A stretch of 52,432 nucleotides of DNA, filler included, from Dimargaris cristalligena (lineage: Eukaryota), in NCBI GenBank assembly GCA_003614675.1. It is 3 parts of 3 records of this genome, joined end to end, with 100 filler letters (N's around TTAATTAATTAA, not from the genome) between each part and the next. Parts side by side here need not be neighbours in the genome. Positions count along the whole stretch, not along the records: positions 17,514 to 34,924 come from ML002802.1; 2 more parts are not named here. One strand, written 5' to 3'. The notes beneath the pieces are model-generated. The model was not told the origin of the DNA. It saw only the letters and a program-made list of their open reading frames with translations, and did not search any database. Both the position numbers and the translations under genes were made by a program. Every line of letters starts with the position of its first letter. Positions within the stretch are counted from its first letter, which is position 1. This document shows, one piece after another, positions 17,414 through 47,700 of this stretch.

Positions 17414-17513
17414 NNNNNNNNNNNNNNNNNNNNNNNNNNNNNNNNNNNNNNNNNNNNTTAATTAATTAANNNNNNNNNNNNNNNNNNNNNNNNNNNNNNN
17501 NNNNNNNNNNNNN
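17414..17513. other. Artificial contig-join linker/gap (N44-TTAATTAATTAA-N44)
   Basis: N runs flank a 12-mer with stop codons in all six frames. An identical copy lies at 34925. Confidence 0.97.
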
Positions 17514-17651
17514 TTTAGGCTTCCTCTTTCAAGTATAAATACTCCCCCTTGCTGCCACCTCTTGGAACGGCAAGTCTATCATCATCTTTCCCTTTTTATT
17601 ACCTATCTTTTTGAATAAAGTTCAGTTTTTAAGGATTTGAGTTCAGTTCTT

Positions 17652-18348
17652 TACACCAGGTGTGACTATGGGAAGGCAAATATGGTGCTATAAGGCCTAA
17701 TATAGTTAGATACTAAGCTAGCCAGATTAGGGTAGATTAGAAGGTCTGAAGTATACTTAGGCATTTATAAATATTAATATAACTATAGTATATTAAGCTT
17801 GACCCAAATATAATATAACATTTTTTGTTATAATATTAGTAATATAAATAGTAAAATAGATATACTAGAAAATAAATAATACCCTTGGGTACTCAAAAAT
17901 AACTAAGCCATAATCAAACTTCTGCAGAAGTACTTGCTATGTGAAATCTTTAGCCTTAACTAAAAAGTTATCTTTTATTGATAGGATATTCCACAGAGTA
18001 TTTATTCTAAAACTTGGGAATTATGAATTGATAAATGCTAAAGGACTAAATCAGACTAATGGTAAAGATAATAAAAGGGTTATTCTACTGGGTATAACCA
18101 AAACATCAGCATTGGAAAGATACTTAAACTAATAATTTGGCTAGGGCTAAAATTATACCTATTGGTATAATAAAAATAAAGATGTAAAAGGTATAAATAA
18201 ACTTATAATATGCTAAAAAAATAGCTAATACTTATTAATAGAGTATAGTATCAGACCATCTAATCCTCCTTAATCTGGCTGGCTTAGAGTCCATCCCTAT
18301 TAGGTCTTATAGTACTATATTAACCATCCTAGGGTCATCCCTGGTATG
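17652..18348. mobile_element. Degenerate MITE-like non-autonomous DNA transposon, ~697 bp, with ~100-bp terminal inverted repeats
   Basis: 17652-17749 aligns without gaps to the reverse complement of 18251-18348 (74/98 identical by manual count). The interior is AT-rich and non-coding. The right end is followed by TA. Confidence 0.7.
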
Positions 18349-18908
18349 TAGTGCCATCTGGAGGTTGGCACTTATCCCCAGACTGTGGACAGCCAGTCCT
18401 CATCATCAGAGGGTGGAATATACCACAATATACAATGGTGGTATCATTCCTGTCATTTTTCCACATAAATTACCACCTATACTATGGCATATACTAAAAA
18501 TAACAAAAATATTATTTATTTCTTTACACTTGTGGTTTGCATTAAAAAGTCCACTATTCTTTCTTGCATTTAAAAGTCCAACCTATTTCTCAGTGGATTC
18601 TTTGTCATTCCATCTTATTACATTCTTTACTTATTTTCCACATCCCTTTCTTTGTATCTGGTGGCCCCTAAGGCCCACAGAATGGTTACATAAGTAACCA
18701 GCAAATTCCCACTCATTTTTGGAGGACAATTACCACTCATTTTATTTTGAACTCTTTTGTCTATTCCCTGAACTTGACCACAACTTTTATTGGTTATTTA
18801 TTATTAATACTATTGTTTTTATAATTTCTTATTAAACTTTTGCCCCCCTCATTTATCCCCCTGTCTTCTGTCTGATTTTCTGACCATCTGCCCCTCCAAA
18901 ATCCCACC

Positions 18909-19500
18909 ATGACAACACCCAACCCTGCCCCTATCTCCTCCAACTCCATGAACCTCCCATCTTTTACCACCAGGGAGCTAGCTACTGTGACTTTAGGCCA
19001 TGCTGATAAGGAGGCCACTGCCTCCTTGCCAATTCTAAAGGCCATTAGCAACAGGCCAGACCTCCCAGGTAGTACAGGTACTATGGGATCATCCTATATT
19101 ATATAACCCTTCCCCTTCTGGACCCCACCTCTTTATACTAATCACTTAAGTGCTGATCCAAAGACTCGTCTAGTTACCATCAGAGTCTTCTGGATACTAG
19201 TAGCCATATGGTTGGCTTATTTACCTATCCCCTAGCCTTAGTAGTATTCTTCCCTTGCGACCTCCCTCTAGAGTTGTCCCCATATATATATATATAACTG
19301 GGCCCTGTTAGGACTGGTTAGATTTCTTAGCTTATTCTTACCCCTTAGTTTACCCCTAATAAACTCTATATACACTCACTCCCCTCATATACTAACTAGT
19401 AAGTATACCCACTGCACATCCCTTACCTATACCTGTATTTAGCCTTTATTAGTTAGTATTATACCTGTATCTGATGCTAGTAGCCTGCTTGGCCAAGCCT
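18909..19500 (+). pseudogene. Decayed ORF relic (Pro/Thr/Ser-rich) inside the CpG-depleted island, possibly repeat-derived
   Basis: ATG in good context (cccaccATG). The frame continues past TAA at 19104 with further TAG stops, e.g. CCC TAG CCT TAG TAG. Confidence 0.3.
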
Positions 19501-22500
19501 ACTGTTAGAAGCCTATCCTTGGGACTCTTGATGGACTAAGCATGGTTAATCTGGGTGACACTTTTGTTATGATCTATTTGCTGCCAGATATACTAGCTTG
19601 TTATATCAATGTATTTACATCAATGAATGGGTAGCTTTTTGATCAATGCCAGGGAAAGCATACCACCAGTTCCCAATTATGGTTTTATTACCCCCCCTTT
19701 TTTTAGTACTGAGTTTTTTTCACTCCTACCCACAGGGCCATTAATGGACTAAGAGTGATCTACCTGTATAACACAAATAAATGAGGGTTATATCCAATAA
19801 CCCTGTCCAACAGTTTTCGGTGCCAATGTTACGTCTAGGCTAAAGGGGCATATGTTGCTGAGTTTGCATATATATATTAGATAATTATACCAATGGTATT
19901 TTATTGAAATATACCAATCGTGGGATAATATGTGGTATACTTCGTTTTATATCTCAGGTTCGATTGTGTGGTCGATGTGGCTAGCAATTGCCGACTGCCA
20001 CCTTAGTGGCCCATCCTTATTGGTGGAGTCGGGCGATCATTCGGGTCCATGTCTACTGGCCCCCTCCAGCGGCTGCACTGGGCCTTGCCGAGGCCAAGTC
20101 TGTTATAGCTGAAGGGGAGTATTGTACATCTAAGTAAGTTGGTAAACTAGTTGGTACTGTGTGGCGATTTTTGAAAGAACTTATTCGACACTAGTGGATT
20201 GAAGTATGGTATAACATAAGCACCACCGACATTCAATGGTACCCACTCCGTCAAGTGAGTGGGACAAAAAGGGACTAGTGGCCGTAAATAATCACAAGAT
20301 TTTTTGTTGCCAGACTTTACCAGCAACTCGAGTTGCTTGAGAACTTTAAATCCCAATGAGGATAGAAAGCGAGAACGAGTCTGGAAAAATTAATTAACAA
20401 AATATTGTGCATAATCCGTCCCACGCCTGACTTAAACATGGTTCCTACTTTAGTCATTAGTGAAAAGGGAAATCGACCCACCGACTAATGAATATCCCTG
20501 GAATATTTATGGAAGCACAGCATTCTACAGTTAACCCAGCCAATAATCTGTAAGTCGAGATACTGTTGGTAAATAATAGAGCGAAAACCCTGAGTAATCA
20601 TGGGGTGTAGGTGTTGACACTTAGCAAGGTCTATCCATGTCTATGCAAAGGTTCTTCTTTCAGAACTCGGCGTTGACCGAAGAAATTCCTTTAGTAGAAC
20701 CCTTCGAAAATCGCCCGACCCATTTGAGTAGCGGGCCACAGCAACCTGTGAACGGAACGGGGGCTGGGACTGGGACTGGGAAAGTAGGGGAGGGTCAGCT
20801 GCTGTATGTCGGCCTGAACCACAGACCTAGCGGTAATTATTTGCTGGTTCCATTAAAAATAAACTCGAAATTGCGGAGAAAGTCGTATAGCCTTATATAA
20901 CCAACCTCTCATCCAGAGAAATGTCGACTCTACTCTATCGGCTGCGATCCATCAACAGCGGGTTGGGTATGCGGGTGTGACCTGACCCGTTAAACCTGTT
21001 TGTCTCCCAAACACAGAATCCTGGAAAAATGGACGACTCAGGGAAAAGCATCAGTCAGTCGTTGATATATTCCGGAGTAAGTAGAATGGATTCCAGAGGC
21101 AATAGCACTACCGGACCATAAAATATTCCGAATGGTGATGATAAATCGGAAGAGGTGGCCTATTCGGGTATTTTCAGCGCTCGCACCACATTGTGCCTAT
21201 CAATTTGATCAATTTCTGACTCCTCTATGCACACAAAAAAAAGAGAGGGTAAATTGTAGGCAAGTGCGCCCATGAAATTCGACATTCGGTCCGTATAGGG
21301 CAGCGGGGTCGTTTCCGGTTGGCTGAATTTTAATGATAAATGAAAACTGAATCCCAATATTCTAAGCAATTTACAAAACTAAACGATAATTTGGGGGCTG
21401 ATAAATTAGTTTAACCGGGCGGACACACGGTCGGACATTTTATTCGGGGATGAATCACCGATGGGGGGCTGCAGTAATTCCAGCCGCTGACGGGTTGGTT
21501 AAAGGGACTGGAAGAAGGGAGGGTGGGTATTGTCCCTATTCTGTCTGGGAGTTTCTTAGAGATTGACATGATTTGGGAAACACTCGTTGTTCTATTAAAA
21601 ATAAATCTAGGGAATCGTCTCATTTATCTGTATATAAACAGTTGGGCTTTCCACCCTTATTCAGAATTAATCAATCACGGATTTGTTGGCAACACACTTT
21701 TCATTGCATCATACACCCCCTCCCCTCTCTCCCATTTGAGACTCCCACTACCTAATACACCCTACGTCACCCCATAGCCCAGTCATTGCCAACTACCGCA
21801 CTCATACTCAGAATTTTTTGCATCAATTACCGCCGTGTGGACCCATTCACTATTATTCGTTGACTATGGTTGTACTCCAAACCCGCTTCCAGCCCAATCA
21901 TGGACCCACTCCCCCCATTTCCGACTCCCGGGACTTGGTAGTTATCCCCGTAAAGCGTCGCCCCTAGACGACTCAGGTACCCACCCATCATTGCGGGGCC
22001 CTACACCGGCGTCTCTATATGACGATGATGACGACTATGCATTTCTCTTTCTCTCCCTCTCTCGCCTTCACTTCTCAACCTGGGACCAGCAACACGCGCC
22101 CATATACCAGTACTTTCACCACACCCATGCGACCATTACCTATAAACTAAAATGGTTTCCTTACATCGTGAGAATCATTTGAATTCACAGCGATTACCGC
22201 CCACACCTCCCAATCACTCTGTTCTCAACTAATCAGCGTCCGAGCTATATAGGATTATTGGTTTATGGGGGGTCGGCAATTTACTCCAAAATATGGCCTC
22301 GGTAAACACCAGGGTGGCAAATGCCACTCTAGCATTCTTGACCTTATGTATATATCACTTTATCATTCCTCCTAAAATTCGGTGCGTATAATCTAATTTG
22401 ACAGCTGTTATCTGTGAGCCTTCCACTATGTAGTTATAATCCGTCTTCATATTTTATTATTTTGATAATTTATTAACTATTCACTATTTAGGCGTTATTC

Positions 22501-23691
22501 GTCAGTGACAATTTCTCTGGACGATTCCCCGTAGAATATTCAAATCTAGTTTAAACATAGAACTTTAACCCCATTGCTAGAAGTACAATAAATTTTCCTA
22601 ACGATTAATGAGTGAATTCCACAAGGGCTTTGAATGGCTGAGAGGACTGTATATGAATTGTACCTATCCAATGGGTATCAGCAATCACAGTGTACTGTTA
22701 CTCTTAGTGCGATTGGGTTGTGCAAATGATCCCCGTATTTTTTTATTAATTTGGTGACTCGGGCCGCGATCCTGGCCTTATTGAAGTTGCCTAAAAGGTT
22801 GGCGGTAAAGTAATACGCGACTTCCTTTGCCATGTCAGTGAGAATAACTTCCGCGTTCGTTGCGCGGAAGACTTAAAACGCTTAATATTGGATATGTGGT
22901 TCAGTATGATATAGGTGTGGGCAAGCAATAAATCAAGTGAAGCATTCGGAATAGTAATCTGACTATGCTTGACACCCAATTTCTATTAGTTTAAGGGCAA
23001 GTACCATGTAACCAACACTTTATATAAGGATAGGTATGGAGAATACCTATCTCGGGCTGATATTGTATCGTTATTTATAACCACTGATAGCAACAGGCAG
23101 CTGCTTACAAGTCTATATTGGGAGACTGTGCGGCTAGTCGATATACCTCATTGGATAATATTCCCCAAATGGATCTTTGAAATGCAACATTATGGCTGGT
23201 CTTTGTGGATTTTTTAGTAACAAATATGAAAAATGGCTAGTGACATCTGATTCAACAGTTTTTGTATCTGATTGTTAATTTCGGTGCAAATTACGTGAAA
23301 TACACGCGAATGGCTGCTTACAATGCCAGGTGCTAGATTGGCATATATTGTTCGACAGTTGGTATGAATCAATTTGGCTTTTGTGGAAATTCCTATTCCT
23401 AACGATTGAAGAAAAAACAATGGCAAAATTAGCCTTAATGAGACTGATTTCTAAAGAAAAAAATACAGAATATTTAAACTCACTGCTTCACTACACTCCT
23501 TTCATTTACTCTTTATTTATACCCACTCATGAGATGAACAACCACGACACGGTTGTTGGCTGTATAATAATAGAGCCACCCAAATCAATATATACACGCT
23601 GCATTTCATTACACCATTTTTCACACTACTCATTGATTTGCTGGTTGATTTCATTTATAGACAGGTATCAGACTTGACTCCACCACCTTAT

Positions 23692-23699
23692 TATATAAG
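23692..23699 (+). promoter_or_regulatory. TATA box of the zinc-finger gene
   Basis: TATATAAG about 80 nt upstream of the ATG at 23773. Confidence 0.5.
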
Positions 23700-23772
23700 G
23701 AGTAGCCCGTTTTCAATCCACAATGTATTACTTCACATAATTTTTTTTCGCCGAGATACCTGCAGCTCAACA

Positions 23773-24417
23773 ATGTCCGACACAAACCACAAGATGCGTA
23801 TTGACCATGTACTCAACAGCGCAGATATAGAACCCAGTGCAATTAACGATTACAAGATCGAATACTTGAATTCCCCCAATAGCTCTAAAAGGCATATGAA
23901 AAATCCCGAAGCGACCGAAGATTCACCCCGTATAGAGAATGCCTCTTTTAGCAAAACAGCCAGCAAACAACCCAAATATAGTTGCCCGAGATGTACCCGG
24001 TATTTTGCTAGTCAAGTTCGATTGGATGGCCACACTAGGTATTGTTTTGGTAACCAATCCGCACATTTTTGTAAAGGGTGTAACGGAGCTTTCAGAAGCT
24101 TGCCATTTTTAATTAGACATACTACTAAGTGTTTGAGGGAGGCTGCATGTCCTATTTGTGGAATAGCTGTTCCTTCCAACGCGCTGTTTCATCTATGTAC
24201 GCCACCTCCCGTATCGAACTGCTCTGGGCCAGTTGGACCATTGAAAATTACTGATGGCCCCCCCGTGGCTAACGAAAGCCCGCCAGTTGTAAACGCACCC
24301 CCCACTGGATGTACTGGTACTGGAACACCACTATCCACAAAAATCCGTAATGGGAAACTCCCTACCCCGTCCTCTCCAACTGCGGACGATTGCAGCAATG
24401 ATCAGTGCATAGTCTAA
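23773..24417 (+). CDS. C2HC-type zinc-finger protein, 214 aa (putative transcription factor)
   Basis: First ATG at 23773 (acaATG). N-terminal KMRIDHVLN motif, then CPRC-X12-HTRYC, CKGC-X12-HTTKC and CPIC...HLC, with a Pro-rich tail. Confidence 0.75.
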   Translation: MSDTNHKMRIDHVLNSADIEPSAINDYKIEYLNSPNSSKRHMKNPEATEDSPRIENASFSKTASKQPKYSCPRCTRYFASQVRLDGHTRYCFGNQSAHFCKGCNGAFRSLPFLIRHTTKCLREAACPICGIAVPSNALFHLCTPPPVSNCSGPVGPLKITDGPPVANESPPVVNAPPTGCTGTGTPLSTKIRNGKLPTPSSPTADDCSNDQCIV

Positions 24418-25836
24418 AACCAACTAAACGAATACCCATCTGCATTGAATGGCACTAATGGAAATTCGGAACTGACCCTTTGTGAAGCTGTCAATAAAAG
24501 TAGAAGGGTAGAACAATATGGGCCGGGCGCAATGGGTATCCACCACCACTTAGAATATTTCACAATTACCATTCCTACCTTTACCAGTATGCAGTCAGCA
24601 ACATTGTTTAATTTTTTATTAAAATATAAATTGGATACCTTGACTATGGTGGTTTTGACGGGGTCGTTTTACAGTGCACGTTGCCCTATACATCCTAGCC
24701 CAACAACCATTGATATCATTATTTGAACTAGATTCTACATTAGCAAATTTACCGATTTTAAAAAATATCTTAGGCCCAGTTACTGCTGAGTGGGCTTGCC
24801 GGCGGATATTTATAGGCTTTGCCTGGTTTTCCAATTACCTGTCTATTGATGGTCAAGCTGCAGAAGCTGAATAGCTCTGCAAATCCAGCAATCCACTAGA
24901 GCATGCTAATATTAATCTATATTGAAGAGCGGTACATACTTCGGCTATTTTTTTCAACGAGGAAACACCTTACAAATATTAGGTCAATACTAGAATATGC
25001 ATGACCACCGAACCTTTATTGTCCGCTGGGCCCCAACTCCAGCTTGTTTGAATGTTCCTGGAATAAGTGTATGCAATCCAGCCCTATAATTGTAGCCGCC
25101 AATATGCTATAGCTAAGTAATAATCGTACTATGGGTGTGTTTTAATATAGATATATATAAACAACCGGGAGATAAGAAAATGATAGTATTTGACCACTAT
25201 TCATAAGTAATTTACATTAGCGCTCTACACATAAAGTAGTTTTTAATCAATCCTGCACCCACACCCGTACGATTCACAGTAAAGTGTGAAGGCGAGAAGT
25301 ATACTCTTTTCCAGCTACCTGCGATCACTGAGCTTCCCAGTTACGGATTAAAAGGATTATAGTGCAATTTACAGTTAATATGTGGGATGAATGCTTTGAT
25401 TGTCTACACTAGTTTAGCTAATAGATAGGTTTTTATTATCCAAAGGTGACTTGCTAGTGTAATCCGACAGATAGCTGCCGAGTTGCATAGTCGGAATGGA
25501 GTCCAGAGGGCCACCTGGTATACTCATACAAAGTACAGTTATTTCCTATACAATTTAAAACTGAGTAAGCTGAAGCTTCAATTGAGACCATGGTTTACCC
25601 ATAGGGAACCGTAATAGATATAGAGCACGTAACATAAATAAATTACAACGAAATAAAGCGACCGAAAACACATTTGACTAATTACTAATGCTGACAAGGG
25701 TTTCGAATCCCACCCCTTCCTCCTTTACTGCGACTTCAAATGGTGGGATCCCAAAAGTTAGATTCAGTGATAACTAGGGTAGGTGTGACGGGCCCACTGC
25801 CATCTGGGACCCGGGGTGGGTAACGGTATAAGTTGG

Positions 25837-26205: not shown

Positions 26206-28522
26206 GATGAATCAATAATTAGAGTAAGTATTAGGGGGGTAAAGGTAAAAGGATAAAGGGGGTGATGGGTATAGGTGAGTATCGGGGAATCGATAAAATG
26301 GCCCGGAAAGAAGAGGTTAGAGGCGGGAGAATAGTGATGGAATAGGGAAGATTGGTTCAAGATGTAAACTGATGAATATTGGCGGGAGGGAAATGAGGAG
26401 GGCTTATATGTATATATATTTGTGTGATAGGGTAAAGGGTATCTTTGACGATGGTCAAAATAAACCTGCTATAGTTGTTTCACTAGTGTGTAGAAAAGGT
26501 ACAAGGCCGGATGCAAGGTCTTGGGCCGACACACCAAGGTCCCGGTCCCAGGCCGCTGGGTCCAATAATAAAGAAGGGAAATGCACGCATTAGGTGCTCG
26601 CTAAATTCGGACTCGTTATAATAGGCAGGGGGAAAAAAGTGCAGCCGAACTCGTCCGTTGACCCTGCCAATTGGGAAAATCTTAAAGGGCGCAATAAATA
26701 TATTATTGGTGGGCTGGCCGATGGTCAACCGTGGACGGCTAAAATAAATTGACCCTATAGTGTCCGGCCAAGCCAAAAGCCTGTTGAACCATAATACCAC
26801 TATCCCACCCTCTATACCATGACTATTATACCAAATTACTTATTCTATACAACGAATTTATAAATAAGTGGATTTAAAGCACAGCTGGAATAGAAGTTCA
26901 ATTAATTTGCGTATTTGTAGCGCCGTCCAACGGTACCAAAATTACACTTAATCCGTGGGCAATCGGTATCCTGATTAACTGCCGGAAACAAGAACCGTAT
27001 CCAATGGCGACCTCGCTCCCAAACCCATAGGTCCTTCCTACGTGCTGCTGCCTTACACAGGAGTTAATTGAAGCTCTGTCCTTCTTAAAGATCCATTCGA
27101 ATGAAAGAATGGGTAACGAGTATCATTCCGTTTAGTAATACTAGTCTACCCGCCGCCGCTAGTTCGAACCAATAATCGCCTACGCCACTGGTGCCGTCTC
27201 CTCCAGCTCGGCTAACACCCCATCCGCTGCGAGTAAAAGGGGCTCCGCTTCGATGAATTTAGGCCGCGCTAAAGAAAAATAAAGTAGCGATGGCCCTCTA
27301 CCCCCGCCGCCAAGTCTAACAACTCGAGACCGGATTCCAACAGCTGTATATATCCACCCTCGGCGGCCTTAACTACCGAGAACTCAGATTGGTCGGAGGA
27401 CGGGAGCGGATATTAGATGAGGCGGAAAGTGGGAAGGCACAGCAAACGGCCTGGGACCCCGCAGTACTTCCCCCTCGCTTTGACCAACCACACCCCCCCC
27501 TTTGGGGGAAAGTGAGAAGCAGGGATTATAAAAAGACCGAACCAAAAGGGGTGGGAGTCCTTCGGAGGGAAGATGTGACCTCTATTCTATTTAGGGGGAC
27601 ACCCTCAGGCTAATTAGGAAACGTAGAAAAGGGAAAGAGCAAGAACATGGCAAGACCAAGAGAAACGAATAGAGTGAGTGGCTAACAGGGGGGGGGGATA
27701 CACTGCCGCATCCGCCACATAACAGAGACCTTCGGCTAAAATTTTTGAGCCCAGAAATTCGGTATTCTTGCATTCCCCCTCCCCCTCCCCTTCACCTAAA
27801 TTATTTTTGACCTGCAAAATATCCGTCAATTCAAAACCAAGGTACCACTTATACTTCCTTAGGCGACCCCAGATATCACTTGAAATATATCCGCCGTTTC
27901 CGGACAAATAGGCATTAGTCATTTTTAGATTGACTGAAATTACGATAAACATTTTTAAAGGGCTAGGAATATTCATAAAGAGGCAAGGAAATGAGAAATA
28001 ACGAGCGGAAAGAGAGAGGACACAGGGGTAGAAAAGCATAAGTCTCTAGTTCATTTAGAGAGGATAGTATCATTAGTTGATAAGTTCGAGTACGAAATGA
28101 AGTGTATAAGAGCATAATACCAGAATGAACATAAAACGGGCATAAGGCCTAGTGGAAGATTAAATCGGAGGTTAACAATACTAGGATAAGTTATTCATCG
28201 CATCAAAATGTACCCAAATCATATATATTTAAATAAATAATCATATTTATAAATGGAGAAGAAGAGTGTCAAAGATGAGAGTACGGAGAACAGGCGGCTA
28301 AACGAAGTCGTCGAAGTACAACCATTATTCAACTTTGCGCATTCTTGAACCGAGATTGGCGAGAGAAAAAATGAGAAATTAAAAAAACGTAAGCGAGGGA
28401 AAGAATAGGAGAACTAAAAAGCAAGCGGGGGAGTATATGGACTTGAGGAATTGAGTGAGAGGAAAGAGAAAGAAAATAGGTGACTTAAACACAGGACATA
28501 CGTATTACTCTCCGTCCAGCAT

Positions 28523-31500
28523 TTAGAACTGAGGCACACCCGATACGATGTCCTGGGGTTTCCGGTCTTCACCGAGCAAAGCCTGGCTGAGGAAGCTCCA
28601 TTCTTCGAGGTAGTGCTGCTTCTTGTGCCCGGTGGCCACGGCGGCGTTGGGATCACGGCCGGCGTAGGTGGGGGTTTTGCCCTGGTGATGGGTGGTTTGG
28701 GTCAAGGAAGTGGCGATACGGGGGGACACGTAAGCCCAGGCCCCGAAGTTCATGGGTTCCTCCTGGCACCACACGATTTCGGCGTTGGGGTACTTGTCGG
28801 CGTGGTCGCGGACCATATCGAAGGGGAAGGGACTGATTTGTTCGACGCGGGAAATGGCCACGTCGCGGAGCTGGTTCTGGTCGCGCGCGCGGAGCAGGGC
28901 GTAGTAGACCTGGCCCGAGCAAAGCACATGGCGCTTGATCTGGTCGGGGGCGGCCAGGGTTTCCGGGTGGGAGTCGGGGATGTACTTTTGGAAGTAAGTG
29001 TTGCCGGTCATTTCCTCCAGGGTGGACCGGGCCATGGGATGCCGCAGCAGCGACTTGGAGTTGAGGCAGATGAGCGGCTTGCGGAAGTCGCGGTACACCT
29101 GGCGCCGGAGTACGTGGAAGTAATTGGCCGGGGTACTGCAGTAGACGATCTGCATGCTGCAGTCCTGGATCTGGCGAGCCAGTTTCTCGGGCGTGGGGAA
29201 CTTGTGGGGGTGGTCGTTGGTCAGCTGGAGGTAGCGTTCCATACGGGCGCTGGAGTGTTCGGGACCCTGGCCGTCGAAGCCGTGGGGTAGGTTCATGATA
29301 ATACCGGACTGCTGCAACCACTTCTTCTCGCCGGCGGCGATGAACTGATCAATAATGACCTGGGCGGTGTTGGCGAAATCACCAAACTGGGCCTCCCAAA
29401 TGACCAGGGAGTTGGGGTTCACCAGGGAGTAACCCAGTTCGAAACCCAGGGCGCCGTATTCGGACAGGGAGGAGTTGGACACGGTGAAGGGCGCCTGGGT
29501 GGGTTTGAGGTTGGCCAGGGGGGTGTACTGCTCCTCGGTATTCTGGTGGTGCAGCACCGAGTGGCGCTGGGAGAACGTACCACGTTCCACATCCTGTCCA
29601 CTCAGACGGACGTGCTTACCTTCGAGCAGGAGGGAGCCAAAGGCCAGGGACTCGGCGGTGGGCCAGTCGATGTTGGCCCCTTCGTCGAGCGACTTGGCCC
29701 GGGCCTTGAGAATCTTGACCAGGACGGGATGGGCGTCGAAGCCCATGGGCACGGTGGTGGTGATCTTGCCCACGTGTTCGAGCACGTCACGGGCGGCACC
29801 GGTGGGGTAAGCGATGGTGGTCTCGACGGCCAGTTCGCTGGGGGACTTGAAGCCGTTCCAGGCACTGGAGAGCCATTCACGGGGGGTGGGCTTGTAGTCC
29901 TTACTCTTCTCGTAATTCTCTTCTAGAATATTCCAGACCCGTTCCTTGTTGGCGCTAATCTCCTTTTGGTCCAAGGTGCCTTCTTCGAGCAGCTGCTTGG
30001 TATAGATATCAATCACCGGGGGCTGCTTCTTGATGGCCCTGTACATGCGGGGCTGGGTGAAGCTGGGCTGGTCGCTTTCGTTGTGACCGTGACGGCGGTA
30101 ACAGATGATATCAATCACCACGTCCTTGTGCCACTTCTGGCGCCATTCGGCGGCGAACTGGCAGGCGTAGACCACAGCCTCGACATCGTCACCGTTCACA
30201 TGGATAATGGGGGCGTTGACGGTCTTGGCGATATCGGAACAGTAGGGGGTAGAGCGGGCGAAACGGGGATCAGTGGTGAACCCAATCTGGTTGTTGGTGA
30301 TAATGTGGATGGTACCACCGGTGGTGTAACGGGGCAGTTCGGAGAAGCCCAGCGTCTCGTAAACGACGCCCTGGGCGGCGAATGCGGCATCGCCGTGCAA
30401 CAGGACGGGCATGGAGTGGATGCGCTCCTCCTCGTCGTTGGTGTAGAACTGCTGCGCGCGGACCTTGCCGAGCACGACGGGGTCGACGGCCTCCAAGTGG
30501 GACGGGTTAGCCACAAGGGACAGATGGACCCGCTTGCCGGACGGCGTCGGCCGGTCGTAGTTCATACCCAAGTGGTACTTGACGTCCCCGGAGCCTTCGC
30601 CCAGGAGTTCCATGGTCCCGCTGAACTCACAGAAGATGGATTCGTTGGGCTTGCGCACCACGTTACTCAGCACGTTCAGACGCCCACGGTGGGCCATACC
30701 CATGGTGATGGACTGAACGCCCAACTCGACGGAGCGGTCGATCAGGGCCTTCATGCCGGGAATGAGGGACTCACACCCTTCCAGACCGAAGCGCTTCTCG
30801 CTGACCCACTTCTTGGCGATGAAACGTTCGAACGAGTCGGACCAAACCAGACGATCCAGGATCACGCGCTTCTCCTCGACACTGTACTTGTAGCGGTGGG
30901 GAATCTCGAAACGCTCCCGGATCCAGTTGCACTGGGTGCGGTCGGGAATGTGGGTGTATTCGATGCCCAATGAGCCGCAGTAGACTTTCTGCAGGCCCTG
31001 GATGATCTCGCGCAGGGTCAACTCGTGCGTTCCGTTCAGACCGAACCCGGGCAGCATACCGGGGCCCAGGCTGAATTTCCGGTCGAGATCCTGCTCGCTG
31101 AAGCCGTAGAACTTGTAGTCCAGCTCGTTGCTAGAGGCGGCGTCGGTCGTGGGTTGCACAATGCCCAGGGGATCCAGCTTGGCCAGATGGTGGCCCCGGA
31201 CCTGGTAGGCCCGCACCAATAGCTGGACCTTCAGGTGGTCCAGAACATTGTTGGAAGCCCCCGAAGACGAAGCGGTAGCGGAAGCAGCGGGCAGGCCAAT
31301 GGTCGACCCGGAGAGCAGGGTAGGCGGGGCCTGGTAGGCCTGGCTGGGCGGGAGCCCGTTGGTGACATTTTTAAAGTAGGACCGCCACGAGGCATGCACC
31401 GATTCGGGGTCCTTTTGCCAAGCGGCGTACATGTCATCCACGTAGTTGGCGGAATTGCCCTGCAAAAAGGCGTCGGCGGCAGCGGGACCAGCAGCGGCTT

Positions 31501-31621
31501 TGGTGCGTAGGGCCGAGGTGGTGAACCGGGCCTGCAGCAGCGGGCGGACCTGCTGCTTACCGGCGGGGGTATAGCGGGAGGCCAGCTGGCGGCCGACTTG
31601 ACCGAAACGTGAAGTCGACAT
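28523..31621 (-). CDS. KGD1: Mitochondrial 2-oxoglutarate dehydrogenase E1 component, 1032 aa
   Basis: Arg-rich presequence, [44 protein letters not shown] (TPP-binding), WEAQFGDF and [10 protein letters not shown]. Intronless CDS. Confidence 0.98.
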
Positions 31622-34924: not shown

Positions 34925-35024
34925 NNNNNNNNNNNNNNNNNNNNNNNNNNNNNNNNNNNNNNNNNNNNTTAATTAATTAANNNNNNNNNNNNNNNNNNNN
35001 NNNNNNNNNNNNNNNNNNNNNNNN
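34925..35024. other. Artificial contig-join linker/gap (N44-TTAATTAATTAA-N44)
   Basis: Same structure as the linker at 17414-17513. Confidence 0.97.
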
Positions 35025-36298: not shown

Positions 36299-39200
36299 TT
36301 ATGACGGCGGTGGCAGCCCTGGTTTGGGTTCAGGCCAATCGCTTGATTTCACATCTAAAGCACCCTGACCCTCACTACGAAGGCCAAGTAAAAATGCCAC
36401 AGTCGGTGCAGACGATTCAATTTGCTCGCGGCTGACCGGCGGAGCCAATGACGGTAGGGTGCGCCAATGCATCCCAGTCGGGGAATTGTTGGTCAGCTGG
36501 GGCGACCGCTTGAGTTGAGAATCCGAGTCCACCGCCAGTTCTTGGAACGGTGACCCAAAAGCCGTGCGATCGGAGAGATAAGTGTCAGCAATACCGGGGC
36601 CAACTAGAAGGGGGGAGTGAAGGGGTTGGCGATGGGGGGTGGGTGGCTGAGGGTAAGGGTTGTAACGCATATTAGGTGACGCGGAGGGGCGAGTTGGTAA
36701 GCCGGCTGCTTCACCGGAGAACGGCCTAGGACGAACAGCCGAGCCTCCTCCGGAGGTTAGCTGTATCGGAGGCGGTAGAACCAGGGGAAATCGCCGATCG
36801 TCGGCTCGACCAAGAGAGGGAAGAATAGGGGAACTGACCATTCGGTAGGCCTCTAGTTGGGTGACTGGCGTGACTCTAGGGGGTTTGTAGGTATTGGATA
36901 TCTCCGCCAGAGGTGAAGAGCGACGTCGGTCGCGAACACGGACAACCTCGAGAGCATCCCCAAGACGTGCCAGTCCTTCCGAGGGCTCGGGCCTTAATCG
37001 ACCAGGGCCCATACCTGGGATAGGTACTATGCCAGGGCTGCCTACCGTGCCTAGGAGTTGGCCGGGGATAGCCTTGGTCTTATTTTCCATGGATGCTGAG
37101 TGGATAAGATTCGTCAGCGAAGGGGTGTGCGACAATCCGGCAAGAGACCGTAAAGGATCATAGGTCCCTGCCGCCCGTGGGTCAAGCAGAGAGTCAAATT
37201 CAAAGGGTGAAATATGACAGGTTAGGTACAGGCGAGGGTACGTATCCGATCGATTACACTCGGCCCCCAGACCCCCACCCAGATGAAGCCGGACATTAAA
37301 TAAGGAATAGCCCCCACCATCTGGTTTCCGAAAATACATGCGATCCTGCGTACTAGAGGAGCGTTTTGCCATTACCATCAGGGAGGTCAGTGGCATTCGG
37401 TAGAAATCAGCGGTCTGCAGAGTGTGGGCGCTAAGCTGAGAGATCGTGGATCGAAGGCCCTCCTGCGCACGGTATGGGGTATATGGAGAGAAGTATCCCC
37501 CTTCACAGGCCACAGTGCTAGTTGCACTACCCTCTGAAATAGGTGTGGCGTAAAAGCCGGATACCGGGGGGATTGAGACGGCAGAATCACTACGTGGTGA
37601 GCCAGCTGGGGGGCGTCTCACGCCCCCCGGTGGAGCCATGGCAACAAATGCCGACTGAGGAGGTTGCATTGGATAGATAGGCGGTATATGGGCCGAATGA
37701 GGCTGGGTAGCGGGTTCACTGAGAACCAGCTGGTCGAGAAGAATCTGGCGGAGTTTGAGAAAAAGGGGAATATCATCTTGATACAGGAAGTCGGTCAGGG
37801 GTCGCTCGAGAAATTCCGGGGGCGTATGGCCCAGTATGGCGGCACAATTATCTGTTACCCGTAGGGATACGTAATCCATTGACATGATAACCACGACCTC
37901 CTTTGTAACAAAGCTTTCGGGGATGGATTCAGGTAAATCAGAGGGTAAGGCGGTAGGGTGGCCAGTAGATGGGGGAGGGAGTATCCGAGGTAGGGTCGCC
38001 GCCCGTTCATGATGGGGATGACTTTGGACATCACGGTGGCCACCAATAACACCCCGCATTGAATCCTCCACCAGATGAGAAGATAGCGGAGGTAAGGAAC
38101 GATCGGGTCCAGAATTAGGATGAGGAGAGACTGTGGCCACTGGGTAGGGTCGGTGTCCACTGGCTAAGGTTGGAGACGCGTACTTGGGCTGATTGCCTTC
38201 TAAGGGCGGTGAGGGAGCGTAGACCCCGAAGGGTGAAGCCGGCTTAGTGGTGATAGTAGCGGAAGGATTGATAGGCCGAAATCCACTAGAACTACCAGGG
38301 CCAGACGATGAGCGGGTAGAACTGTTATAGGGGAACGCAGGCGCGGAATGCAGAGAAGGTTCTGGGGCACGCGAAGCAAAACCATACAATGGGGGATCAT
38401 TCCGGAACGCAACGGGGGCAAAGGGGGCTGAACCTGGAACCGAGCAGTAGGCCTGTGAGGACCGTGGGCCGGCGGGGGCGATTTCACGAATCGCGGGTAT
38501 GGCATGTGAAGCGACTAGTGGTGAGGTCTGGGATTGGGACGAGTAAACAGGACCTGCCGTTGGAGTATGGGGCTGATAGCGGTAGTGGTGCTCCCGGTTA
38601 CCGGCAAGGCTGAATTGGTTAATGTGGTGGACCATTGGATCGTGGGTTCGCGAAGTAAGTGGGGCAATGGGGGCTACCATAATAGAGGGATTAATACAGC
38701 TGGTCCCGACCGGGCCGTCCATAACGCCCTTGCGGTCCTTCAGCTTCGGCCGACCGCGCTTCTTGTGCTGTACGTCGACACAGGTGGCGGTCTTGCCCAT
38801 GGATACGCAGCGGCGACAAGGACGTGAGACTATAACGGGACACACGGCAGTACATTACGGCCGAGTCCGGAGAGTCGAGTGACAAGGGGGAGTGGCATTG
38901 AGGTAAGGGGTTATCAGCATGGTACATGGTTGAATTGGAGCATGGTCGAGCATAATGGGATATACAAACTAAGCATTAATTAGTGATCAGCATGCAGATA
39001 TTTACACCTTCAATTTGAATAGGGTGCCGGTAACTAAGCCAACCAAAAACTAGGTGAGAAACTAATAAAAGAGTGGCTCCCAGTGATTCAAAATGTTGTT
39101 AAGAAAGGGGGGGACTGTTCGAGACAATGGGTCATCACCCAATGGGGCTAAGCACTCGAATTAAGCAAAGGGCTGGTCTATAAAAAACTATAGTGTGCTA

Positions 39201-40193
39201 ATTATAGTTTACACAATAAAGGAAGGTTTGGAAATGACAACAAACGTGGAATATGGAGGGGCACACCACTCCACCCCCTTAAACAATAGTTCAATATACT
39301 GGTCAGCCGGTGTCTAACATTTTGGATGAACCAGTGTGGGCGAAAAAAAAAAACACCCAAATTTACCCTATATGTCCCATTGAAGGAGCCTGGAGGTGAG
39401 GGCAAATATTTAGCGCACTGGAAATCTTGACAATGATCATCATCCCAAATTTCACAGTAGCACATCACAAAACTTATAGCCAAGGGCAAAACATTTATGG
39501 CAATCACCGCCTTTGTCAGAATTAGGCGCTGCACTTCCTCCAAAGACGGAGCTAAGCCATTAGGGACCTTACACCAAGGATACCACCATGCCCATATGAG
39601 CCACCAGGCTAACCAACGGGGCAATATAAATAAAATAATAGGGGAGGAACGAAACTGGAACGGGGTACGGGTCTTCACACTTAATAACTAAATAGAAGTA
39701 CTTCCTGAATCAATCATATAAAATACGGGTACATCGATTCGGCCGTAGAGCGGAGAAGGGAAAGGGTATGTCACGCTTATTTAAAAATCAGTGTCTGGTG
39801 GTCTGGGTACTTACGGTCGCAAGCCAAATGGGCTTTTTTGCAGTTTGCACAGGCGCTGGGTACATGTGATTTGCCATTTTTGGTTGCAGGCGCAGGGGAA
39901 GGATTGATGGGCTTGTCAGGGCCATCGGGGGCACTAGACGGGGAAAACACAGAACCCACGAGAGGTACTGGCGCCGAGGTGGAAGCCACGGACATTGGTC
40001 GTGATCTTACAGGAGCACTGGAGGACGCCAGAGGCGGAGTTGTGGAACGGCTTGAAACGGCTGGCTCAACGGACGGCCGCCATGGACCTAAATGGGATGT
40101 TGGGGGGCGGTGGTCCATATGCGAGGATGAATGAACGACTCGAAAGTGGTAATTGAGCAAGGGAAACTCGCAAGTAGTGACACTGTCGGTCAT
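36299..40193 (-). CDS. Zn(II)2Cys6 transcription factor with a PAS-like domain, 2 exons, ~969 aa
   Basis: Exons 40193-39815 and 38829-36299 (GTAAGT..ATAG, 985-nt intron). The splice restores SACANCKKAHLACD-L-SRPCRRCVSMGKTATCVDVQHKKRGRPK. PAS-like segment VTDNCAAILGHTPPEFLERPLTDFLYQDD. The start codon is uncertain. Confidence 0.88.
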
Positions 40194-44700: not shown

Positions 44701-47700
44701 CCATTCTCCTTCTTTTCCATTCAGGTACAGCTATTCAGCGATTGGGCCAGCTGTACTGCGTTCCTGTGTGGAATCCTCCTCCCCAAGTGATTCCACTCCA
44801 TTGGCTTCATCTACTCAAACCATGCCAATAAATTCCTTTGTACTATACAGATTGAGCTTCGCTATAGGACCACGTAGACTAGCTGTCGATTAGTTGCGGT
44901 TCACTGTTGCCCAGGGCTTGATCGATGGATTCATGGTCTAATCGCCGTCAGTGAAATAGTAATCTTAGCATAGTTGCATTGCTAATTGACCAGGGCCCTT
45001 ACTCCCATAGTGTAGTGGGTGTGCTTAGTGGAAAGCTGGGTTCACAACAGTACACGGTGGCCCAGAACCATCGCACTAAGCTAGGTAGTCCTCATTATTT
45101 ATCATTTTTCTCTTCGTGGCCCGAGGGCCATAGACGCTATATTGACACCATCGCACAAGTCTGAAGGTAATTTACAATATCGCCCCCAGTACACGTCCGT
45201 GGAGAACTATTTTGAAGAGTTTGCAAAACTAGAGAGTCCCACGGCTTACGCAACACTAACTACAGTCACATTTTTGTAACAGGAATAGGAACATATTCTA
45301 TTCTTGGTGTTTTGCATTAAACATCAGCCCTGCCGATACTGCAATTATCAGCAAGTTGGCTGGTGGCTCATAGTTAACGTTGGCAAAATTTTATAAAATA
45401 ACCCCTGGCCAGCAATGGCCTACCATTGAGATTCAATTGATAAACCTTGCTACTATCCACTATCCTCCACACGTGGGCGCAGATAAGAGAGGTGGGACAT
45501 TTGGCGGCTTAGGTTCCCTCCCATTCACTGCCCCAATTACCGCCGGCGCACTATCACTATATTGCCTTGAAACAGCATTGACGCACAGTACTTTAGCATT
45601 GCCCTACCACCGACCCCTCTCGCATTACTGTCACCCAGTCATATCCCCAGCACTACAATACGGAGTGCCGGTGTAAAAGGATATTCTAGGTTGGAGGCCA
45701 AATCGGACCTATGGGTATGCCGAATTTTAACAGCCGCCAATGACCTTGCAGCACCCGCTTTTATTTTCCGAAATACTGAAATACCAACCAGGGTATAATA
45801 CGCCAGTGTATCTATTAAGCCTAAACGTGAAAGGTGAGATACACGAACTGTGGATGACTCAAGCCGTACGCCATGCACCTGCCTGACTTTCAGCTTTACT
45901 TATCCCAGCCCAACCTATATCAAATCGATCCGAATCACTACTAGCTGCGACTTACGATGCCTTTCCACTCACTTGTGCGGTGCAGCTGAACGACCTATAT
46001 TTAGCCACGTCATTTTTTTTTTGCATTGCAGGTTGCTGTACAGCGACCTGGTGAGATAGTCCCATTCCACCGGAGTTCCAACTGTTTGGACTGCAGCATC
46101 CAGGTGCACCATCACCACAATGCATCCAGGTGCCAGAGAGTATCTAGGTATTAAGAATAGGGGGATTCCCTTCTGTGGGTCAAGCCCCGTGATGCCATGC
46201 CGGAGTTATGCATCACAAAGCCCCCAGCCTTCGCAGCCATTCATTGCCTCTAAATGTAGCGTATTACAGCCCCGTCTGGCTTAGAATGGCCTTGACTCAC
46301 AGCTCATTGCCCGTCCCAGTGCCTCTCCGTGATTTAAGGTGAAGGCAATCTCATTTCGGACGGTTTAGCATCACCTGTTTCGTAGGGATATTTTTAGCGA
46401 GTCACGAAGTCTTCGATATCTCCGTGTACTCGACCACATCCATCGTGTAGTATCTTGTATTACTCATATTGCCATCGCTGTGCTATAAATATGCATTTCC
46501 ACATTGGGACGACCTTATGGTGTGAATATACATACACAACAGCGGGAATGTCAAGTGGCTTTCCCTATCAATTAGTGTTTTGGCCACCACGTCTCCAGAA
46601 TACCCAAATCCCCTTATTGAAAAATCTACTATGGTATTTCCCTTCGCCTTCGTCTCCGCCTCCCCCAGCCTCTCCCCTCATATTGCAATTTGCCCATTGC
46701 TGCAGCATGGCGGCTATCAGTCCCATGAGACTTGTCACTTCAATGCTACAATACAGATTAGCTACTGTAAATTATTACTATATGAGTGGCGGTAAATCCA
46801 TGGTACTATATTCACTTACACCATAGCTCCTTATGGAGAATATTTCTCCGCCAGTGCACTGTAGTCTCGAATTTGGCGGTAATCCCGAATGCTAGTATTC
46901 CTCAGATATCCCAATTTTGCATTTACAATAGTCTCGGTCAGCTTGGTTGTCTACCATAGGTCGGACAATCCCTTCAATGTGAAAGGGGTAGAAGGCAATC
47001 AAATGGTCCCATATGGTACCCTTTTCCCCAAGTCATCCATTTTATGCATCTACCATATAGTTGAGAGCCTACGAATAAATTGGAATAAAAACAAGAAAAA
47101 AAATGGGCACAACAGCCATTAAATTTGATTTGGTTGGTTATGATGTATAGGTTTACCCTTACTCATGTAAAATAGGGTTGTTATGCAAGAAGCTGGAAAG
47201 CCAGGCCAGATGGTCACTTGCACCCTCACTGTTAGTTCATCAGCATACGATGGCTAAGACTAGCCAGTTAGTCCTGTTTTCATTATTAAAGCGCAGCATT
47301 AGCACACACCCATCTGCTATCACACCAAACTGGTCATTTATTAAGCTCTATACAAGACTTTGGCGGAAATCTTCGACTGTAGCTCTGGCAACAAATGAAT
47401 AATATTGTCTGTTCAATTTTGGCCGATAGTAGTATTCTAGAATGATTGTTTTTCAGCGATCCAGACTATTCTTTTTACGATTAACAAGACACCCACCTCC
47501 TCTCCCTTCTAGCTAGTTACACTTACCGGAGAAATATCGACCCGGTTAGTTGGCTGGAAACCCCAGCGTTTTAGAGTACCTTCGGCTAAACCTACTCGCA
47601 GGAACCAGACACATCAATTATTATTTTTTGGACGTGAGATGGTTCGCCCCGATGATTGGATTAAGACCATTGGGTGCTTCAGGCGGCCCCGTGCACGAAC

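Follow-up and report, generated by a model that had tools for sequence, protein, structure and literature searches.

An almost CpG-free nest of high-copy repeats in Dimargaris cristalligena and its possible origin in CG methylation

A 52,432-nt stretch of DNA from the fungus Dimargaris cristalligena (GenBank assembly GCA_003614675.1), here called the window, contains an island that is almost devoid of CpG dinucleotides. The window consists of three pieces of 17413, 17411, and 17408 nt, and the island occupies positions 17514-19817 (2304 nt; all positions count along the whole window), at the start of the second piece (record ML002802.1). At least four very abundant, non-coding repeat segments are nested in the island, and a 257-nt tail follows them. 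Its division into five segments, A to E, was drawn from depth steps, joints, and loose contig ends (Table 1). In our reading, the island combines, in the nuclear genome, a truncated fragment of ultra-high copy number (A), a foldback element (B), a C/T-rich repeat that was probably inserted (C), and a TpA-rich repeat (D) whose tail (E) is probably decayed.

Table 1. Segments of the CpG-depleted island and its borders. Expected CpG numbers are given for each segment.
Feature	Position	Strand	Description
Artificial joint, N44-TTAATTAATTAA-N44	17414-17513		Non-genomic; creates the apparent left boundary
Segment A	17514-17654		Most abundant repeat fragment, left-truncated by the joint; 1 CpG (17568) vs 3.6 expected
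Segment B	17655-18345		691-nt foldback element (MITE-like; MITE, miniature inverted-repeat transposable element) with AT-rich loop; 0 CpG vs 12.2 expected, P = 5e-6
Segment C	18346-19077		C/T-rich repeat between the right arm of B and D; 0 CpG vs 22.1 expected, P = 2.5e-10
Segment D	19078-19560		High-copy, TpA-rich repeat; 2 CpG (19167, 19258) vs 16.2 expected, P = 1.3e-5
Segment E	19561-19817		CpG-free tail, no other copy at >=80% likeness in runs X1-X3; 0 CpG vs 7.2 expected, P = 8e-4
Start of ordinary single-copy host DNA	19818-20400		CpGs at 19818, 19832, 19919, 19943 onward; 11 vs 10.8 expected, then 9 vs 11.8

The island contains three CpG sites (17568, 19167, and 19258), and the next one follows at 19818. 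This matches the original prediction, made from this DNA alone, of a tract with no CpG from ~17570 to ~19166 and only two up to ~19817. The three observed sites compare with 73.0 expected from the base composition, or with 57.7 if the observed/expected (o/e) ratio of low-GC host DNA (0.79) is applied (Poisson P = 3e-21). Base composition alone, raised alongside the original prediction as another possible cause, is ruled out by these numbers (3 CpG vs 58-73 expected). The CpG o/e of the island was 0.04 and its GpC o/e was 0.93. Because the latter is normal, the loss is specific for CpG and is not an effect of composition. The two longest CpG-free gaps of the window (1599 and 560 nt) both lie in the island, and the next longest one elsewhere spans 176 nt. 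None of the 49,159 other 257-nt intervals was free of CpG. The remainder of the same piece had a CpG o/e of 0.85, low-GC parts included, and CpG is thus common outside the island, as had been stated. The host genome at large is not CpG-depleted. The three remaining sites are found in the contexts ACG, TCG, and GCG, and every NCG class is depleted. The island was also correctly described as TpA-rich, with a TpA o/e of 1.22 compared to 0.99 in the rest of the window. Mildly CpG-poor 500-nt intervals, far weaker than the island, were observed at 39001-39500 (o/e 0.33) and 46751-47500 (o/e 0.42-0.45); these patches may be small old repeat relics.

The two edges of the island are of different nature. 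An identical joint (44 N, TTAATTAATTAA, 44 N) separates the second and third pieces at 34925-35024, and since the first joint ends at 17513, the left edge of the island, at 17514, is merely an artificial cut. The right edge is abrupt: 19561-19817 has 0 CpG, and the 257 nt that follow have 11. It was crossed with zero differences by contigs of three public runs (X1, X2, and X3), all from the same organism and originating from two studies: 19511-24500 in X1 and X3, and 19512-20855 in X2. Therefore, the right boundary is real, and the claim of a sharply bounded island holds for this edge but fails for the left one. Further contigs with zero differences covered 17627-18374, 18355-18710, and 18681-19019, that is, most of the island, which argues against an assembly artefact. 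It is true that the island starts at an artificial joint, and that 19018-19510 had no zero-difference contig among the 32 of 8672 pieces listed. However, in all three runs, the contigs that hold the final ~300 nt without CpG also hold the flank with normal CpG content. We therefore regard a mis-assembled or contaminant stretch fused to host DNA as very unlikely.

The repeat nature of the island was apparent from the contigs of the same runs. At 80-100% likeness, 3297 (X1), 2687 (X2), and 2170 (X3) contig pieces aligned to the stretch that contains it. The summed contig depth in the bins of the island was ~10 to >1000 times that of the flank, a rough guide, as summed depth is not copy number. 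The placement of the CpG loss on repeated DNA in the original prediction agrees with both the depth and the thousands of aligned pieces. Depth was highest for segment A, where the bin 17514-17746 reached 260,848/497,575/447,277 compared to 186.6/114.5/510.6 in the flank (X1/X2/X3). Many joints and loose contig ends accumulated at 17655-17668, at its transition to segment B. Apart from the internal arms of segment B, no further copies were found inside the window. An 18-base word of segment A was found at 11 loci in metagenome contigs, of which two gave BLAST matches at E <= 1e-3; these covered 23-24 nt at the word itself, as expected by chance. CpG depletion was significant for segments B, C, D, and E individually, all of which are longer than A. 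The depletion of several distinct repeats points to a process acting on repeats rather than to a quirk of one element.

Segment B has the structure of a foldback element. The inverted arms at its two ends (17655-17795 and 18206-18345) are imperfect, being 77% complementary over a 95-nt core and matching at 73% over 143 nt. As single-stranded DNA, the segment was calculated to fold at -84.7 kcal/mol with its ends paired together, compared to a mean of -53.9 kcal/mol for shuffled sequences (z = -6.6), and none of 20 shuffles folded as well. It resembles foldback/MITE elements in being short and non-coding, with no open reading frame (ORF), and in having long imperfect terminal inverted repeats, many copies, and a strong foldback. 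It differs from them in that neither a target-site duplication nor a transposase relative was identified, so B was not assigned to a superfamily. By eye, no clear target-site duplication was seen at 17655 and 18345, where B abuts other repeats on both sides.

The segments to the right of B are arranged as a nest. Joints that lead from 18325 directly to 19077, skipping 751 nt, were present in X1, X2, and X3, and further joints connected 17655-17668 with 19077-19084 on opposite strands. The consensus of the loose contig ends before 19078 resembles a B arm, and the summed depth of segment C exceeds that of the flank. In many other copies, the arm thus directly adjoins 19077/19078, and segment C looks like an insertion in a longer element. 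Segment D had a summed depth of 26,000-207,000 and a TpA o/e of 1.73 in 19001-19500, and 37-38 contigs ended loosely behind 19540 and 19560. It also carries an (AT)7.5 microsatellite at 19282-19296, where other copies have a 4-nt deletion.

In segment E, the depth fell to the level of the flank (186.6/144.9/510.6 in the bin 19611-19843 for X1/X2/X3). Beyond 19540, the loose-end consensus of other copies still resembles the sequence of the island. Because of this resemblance, we favor segment E as the probable older, more diverged end of element D. Unique DNA that was entered by spreading methylation would look the same.

Related sequences were also seen in run X6, which is labelled as a different organism. 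This run contained copies of segments A and D that are ~80-92% alike (17514-17596 and 19354-19560) at a contig depth of 18-33. It also matched over 21514-24500, including flank sequence at 22528-24264 with 0 differences in 1737 nt, at a low depth of 5.5. X6 may either contain this fungus at low abundance or carry repeats that are common to another organism.

No coding capacity was recognized in the island. Every reading frame of 17514-20400 contains 56-70 stop codons in ~962 codons. The six read-through frames of 17514-19819 gave no match to Pfam at the cut-off, and the sole row at E <= 1 was Fibrinogen_C with 12.7 bits compared to a cut-off of 22. A Rfam gathering scan and a tRNA scan of the whole window yielded 0 matches each. 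The string CCCTAGCCTTAGTAG at 19230 had been taken as the relic of an ORF derived from PQPQQ. The string is present, but the density of stop codons and the lack of a Pfam match do not support this origin.

The host was placed by a protein-coding gene on the same piece. An intron-free ORF for 2-oxoglutarate dehydrogenase (28523-31621, minus strand, 1046 aa) encodes a protein with 86% identity to that of Tieghemiomyces parasiticus and 83% to those of Dimargaris xerosporica and Dispira simplex, and with at most 69% identity to the other 117 proteins listed. These identities place the host in the Dimargaritales (Kickxellomycotina, Zoopagomycota), the earliest-diverging order of Kickxellomycotina (PMC9866270). 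The premise of an early-diverging host, and not one from the Pezizomycotina, was thereby borne out, as the closest proteins among the matches listed were from Dimargaritales. Nearby ORFs are of the housekeeping type: alcohol dehydrogenase, ketopantoate reductase, Tim54, and a P-loop protein. Two long ORFs, at 23533-24417 (plus strand) and 36299-38854 (minus strand), had no Pfam match at E <= 0.001. Their Cys/His patterns recall those of zinc-finger regulators, of the C2H2-like and Zn2Cys6-like types. Opposite the 2-oxoglutarate dehydrogenase ORF, the plus strand has open frames of 268, 211, and 348 aa within 28484-30973; a further one of 231 aa (28653-29348) is on the minus strand in a different register. 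These additional frames are rich in Gly, Val, Arg, and Pro and look like by-products of the 60% GC content, not like genes.

The differences between the island and its other copies were dominated by transitions. The ratio of transitions to transversions among all listed differences was 313:67 in X1, 235:58 in X2, and 263:54 in X3 (4.1-4.9:1). Sequence context was assessed in a sample of 40 of the 470 listed differences, 30 of which were transitions and were classed by their 3' neighbor: 11 were of CpA-type, 7 of CpT-type, 6 of CpC-type, and 6 of CpG-type. The island's own three CpGs were either gained or retained by this copy alone. At 17569, nearly all depth in X1-X3 (in X1 and X2, all of it) reads A instead of G, and at 19168 and 19258, 98% of the X1 depth reads a different letter. 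Conversely, some or most other copies would have CpG where the island has CpA or TpG, namely at 18580 (79% of depth), 18948 (70%), 19418 (17%), and 19520 (39%). At 18659/18660, the island has TG and at least 86% of the depth has CA. This is the mirror pair that independent decay of one former CpG on one or the other strand would leave. The 18 loose-end consensus strings of X1-X3, part of a sample of 22 out of 1187 in all (the other 4 being from X6), contain one CpG in 510 nt, an anecdotal sample that is partly redundant with the island.

The contexts bear on repeat-induced point mutation (RIP), a process that the original prediction had proposed in a RIP-like form. Classical RIP as in Neurospora is RID-dependent C-to-T mutation of duplicated DNA, mainly from CpA to TpA. 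The island shares with RIP of Neurospora and other Pezizomycotina that repeated DNA is the target and that the product is AT-shifted and TpA-enriched; the TpA/ApT product index was 1.20-1.28 in three of the four 1-kb blocks of the island. It differs in that the depleted dinucleotide is CpG and not CpA. The RIPper thresholds were taken from PMC6714961 (three criteria, with a substrate index of <=0.75). None of 103 intervals passed all three, and the substrate index of the island ranged from 0.97 to 1.25, never reaching <=0.75. The suggested tabulation of C-to-T contexts among copies also gave no CpA bias, as the 11 CpA-type transitions out of 30 compare with an expected share of 35.4% (P = 0.51). 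In addition, the host is not an ascomycete. As far as this window shows, classical RIP is thus extremely unlikely to have shaped the island, and the RIP part of the original interpretation found no support.

The lack of CpG in the island is, on balance, probably a long-term scar of CG-context cytosine methylation on repeats, a reading that we hold to be somewhat more likely than not; both the methylation and its putative writer, a DNMT1-type enzyme, are inferred. The depletion is confined to repeated DNA, with normal unique neighbors, the 257-nt tail at 19561-19817 being the exception. Repeats would be marked by 5-methylcytosine (5mC) in CG context, written or maintained by a DNMT1-type enzyme together with UHRF1. 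Deamination would convert 5mC to T, and with poor repair of the mismatch, methylated CpG would change to TpG or CpA much faster than other sites mutate, so that CpG would be lost from repeats far faster than it is recreated. As non-coding elements need no CpG and would be under no selection to keep it, their lineages would approach a nearly CpG-free equilibrium. The neighboring genes and spacers, if unmethylated, would keep their CpG o/e of 0.85.

Several published observations make such methylation plausible. Deamination of 5mC to T, with poor repair of the resulting mismatch, is described in PMC13297926, where the CpG depletion of the human genome is given as roughly five-fold. For early-branching fungi, 5mC is reported to occur on transposons only (PMC12695648). 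The table in PMC10538959 lists DNMT1 and UHRF1 for both Kickxellales that it covers, Coemansia reversa and Linderina pennispora. For these two species, DNMT3, DNMT4, and DNMT5 are not listed, and Linderina is marked as 5mC-positive. CG methylation is plausible for the lineage of the host because these relatives possess DNMT1 and UHRF1, and because Linderina is 5mC-positive. The island resembles known cases of methylation-driven decay, i.e., vertebrate repeats and the CG-methylated transposable elements of Basidiomycota and Tuber melanosporum (PMC4352252, PMC13297926), in being CpG-specific, confined to repeats, and changed mostly by transitions. It differs from them in that the loss is nearly total (o/e 0.04), is not accompanied by an excess of TpG or CpA, is fixed in the consensus, and occurs in Dimargaritales. 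The kind of process, a methylation scar on transposons, is known; the novelty lies in the lineage and possibly in the degree.

A number of observations weigh against methylation-driven decay. The by-products of CpG deamination are not in excess, with an o/e of 0.87 for CpA and 1.04 for TpG in the island compared to 1.02 and 0.99 in the host. This indicates that the CpG loss is either old and overwritten, or that the elements were CpG-poor from the start. Other dinucleotides of the island also deviate from the host (o/e in island/host: CC 1.62/1.27, GG 1.87/1.27, TA 1.22/0.99, TC 0.74/0.90, GA 0.78/0.92). CpG-type transitions among the copies numbered 6 of 30 compared to 3.3 expected (11.0%; P = 0.11). 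Only when 18659/18660 and 19417/19418 were treated, post hoc, as pairs derived from CpG did the number reach 8 of 30 (P = 0.014). Most of the CpG depletion is already present in the family consensus, and decay after insertion is barely observable. Segment E is CpG-free even though no other copy of it was found at >=80% likeness. The depletion of the island also exceeds that of the human genome as given in PMC13297926. Finally, the table of PMC10538959 shows no DNMT1 for Smittium, a member of the same subphylum, and Dimargaritales are outside that table.

The inverted arms of segment B belong to the same set of objections, as they show no transition bias. The original prediction had counted 15 transitions among 24 mismatches in the aligned arms. 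The arms do exist, and in the 95-nt core the numbers come close to these counts (13 transitions among 22 mismatches), but the transition excess disappears over the full arms, where an alignment of 144 columns, 7 of them with gaps, contains 16 transitions and 15 transversions. About seven CpA/TpA or TpG/TpA pairs had also been reported. Their number was reproduced (~6-7 of the 16 transitions), but it is not an excess, since it lies near the share of 35% given by composition.

A different explanation is that the CpGs were removed by an active, repeat-triggered, CpG-directed hypermutation of all copies, masters included, either RIP-like or by enzymatic deamination coupled to methylation, as in methylation induced premeiotically (MIP). 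The near-total removal of CpG across at least four different repeat segments would fit such a process. A family consensus without CpG is also what is expected if every copy was hit at the same sites, and the dominance of transitions among the copies points in the same direction. There are precedents in a TpCpG-directed RIP-like hypermutation in Pucciniomycotina (Horns et al. 2012, PMC3318451) and in a CpG signature that has been connected with a Masc2-like Dnmt1 (PMC4352252). The island is like the former in that C-to-T change at CpG affects repeats in a fungus that is not one of the Pezizomycotina and shows no RID-type signature. It differs from it in being depleted at every NCG, whereas the Pucciniomycotina process is defined by TpCpG (PMC3318451), and in that no hypermutation burst is demonstrable. 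A TpCpG-specific process was rejected, as the 3 CpGs that remain in 2304 nt represent ACG, TCG, and GCG.

Active removal is nevertheless unlikely. TpG and CpA are not in excess, and the CpG-context transitions in the sample of 30 are not significantly enriched. Copies at 80-99% likeness coexist, which means that the families kept spreading. PMC10538959 tabulates five Zoopagomycota and lists DNMT4, the RID class, for none of them. In a screen across the fungal kingdom, enrichment of RIP-like signatures was reported for ascomycetes alone (PMC12543289). Moreover, the data look alike for fast active mutation and for slow passive decay, and the passive decay of methylated CpG suffices for them, so that the uncharacterised repeat-targeted mutagenesis system put forward originally was not upheld. 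It is doubtful that a fungus of the Zoopagomycota, outside Dikarya and without RID, has a homology- or repeat-triggered defense that strips every CpG from repeats. If it did, the CpG-free, non-coding elements would be survivors that can no longer be targeted and for this reason have reached very high copy numbers.

The elements could also be CpG-free independently of present methylation, either by horizontal transfer from a CpG-depleted donor or by evolved avoidance of CpG. The depletion in the consensus beyond this copy alone, the missing excess of TpG and CpA, and a dinucleotide signature that is as a whole (CC, GG, TA, TC, GA) unlike that of the host would all agree with such an origin, as would the related copies of A and D in X6. 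However, distinct segments and the tail without other copies are all depleted, which points to a process at this place and not to one donor. The sites with CpG in some copies and TG or CA in others indicate that CpGs were present and were then lost within the family. The matches in X6 do not amount to evidence of transfer, as this run, which also holds the single-copy flank without differences, may contain this fungus. We consider an intrinsic or imported lack of CpG improbable and retain methylation-driven decay as the favored cause.

For Dimargaritales, no methylome and no account of 5mC, of DNMTs, or of repeats depleted in CpG emerged from a literature search that also covered RIP in Zoopagomycota and cytosine methylation in Kickxellomycotina, although the DNMT survey of Bewick et al. 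2019, which was outside this search, may cover them. If an active process was responsible after all, it would contradict the restriction of RIP-like signatures to ascomycetes (PMC12543289).

Tracts without CpG in a genome with normal CpG content are a cheap marker of the repeat compartment, applicable to draft genomes of mycoparasites that are unculturable or grown in co-culture. Early-diverging fungi are usually described as dominated by N6-methyladenine (6mA). If the methylation reading is true, the island would be one more observation on the history of 5mC in these fungi, which is debated. It would then be evidence, at the level of sequence, that transposons of Dimargaritales are silenced by CG methylation of a strength and age sufficient to erase the CpGs of entire repeat families.

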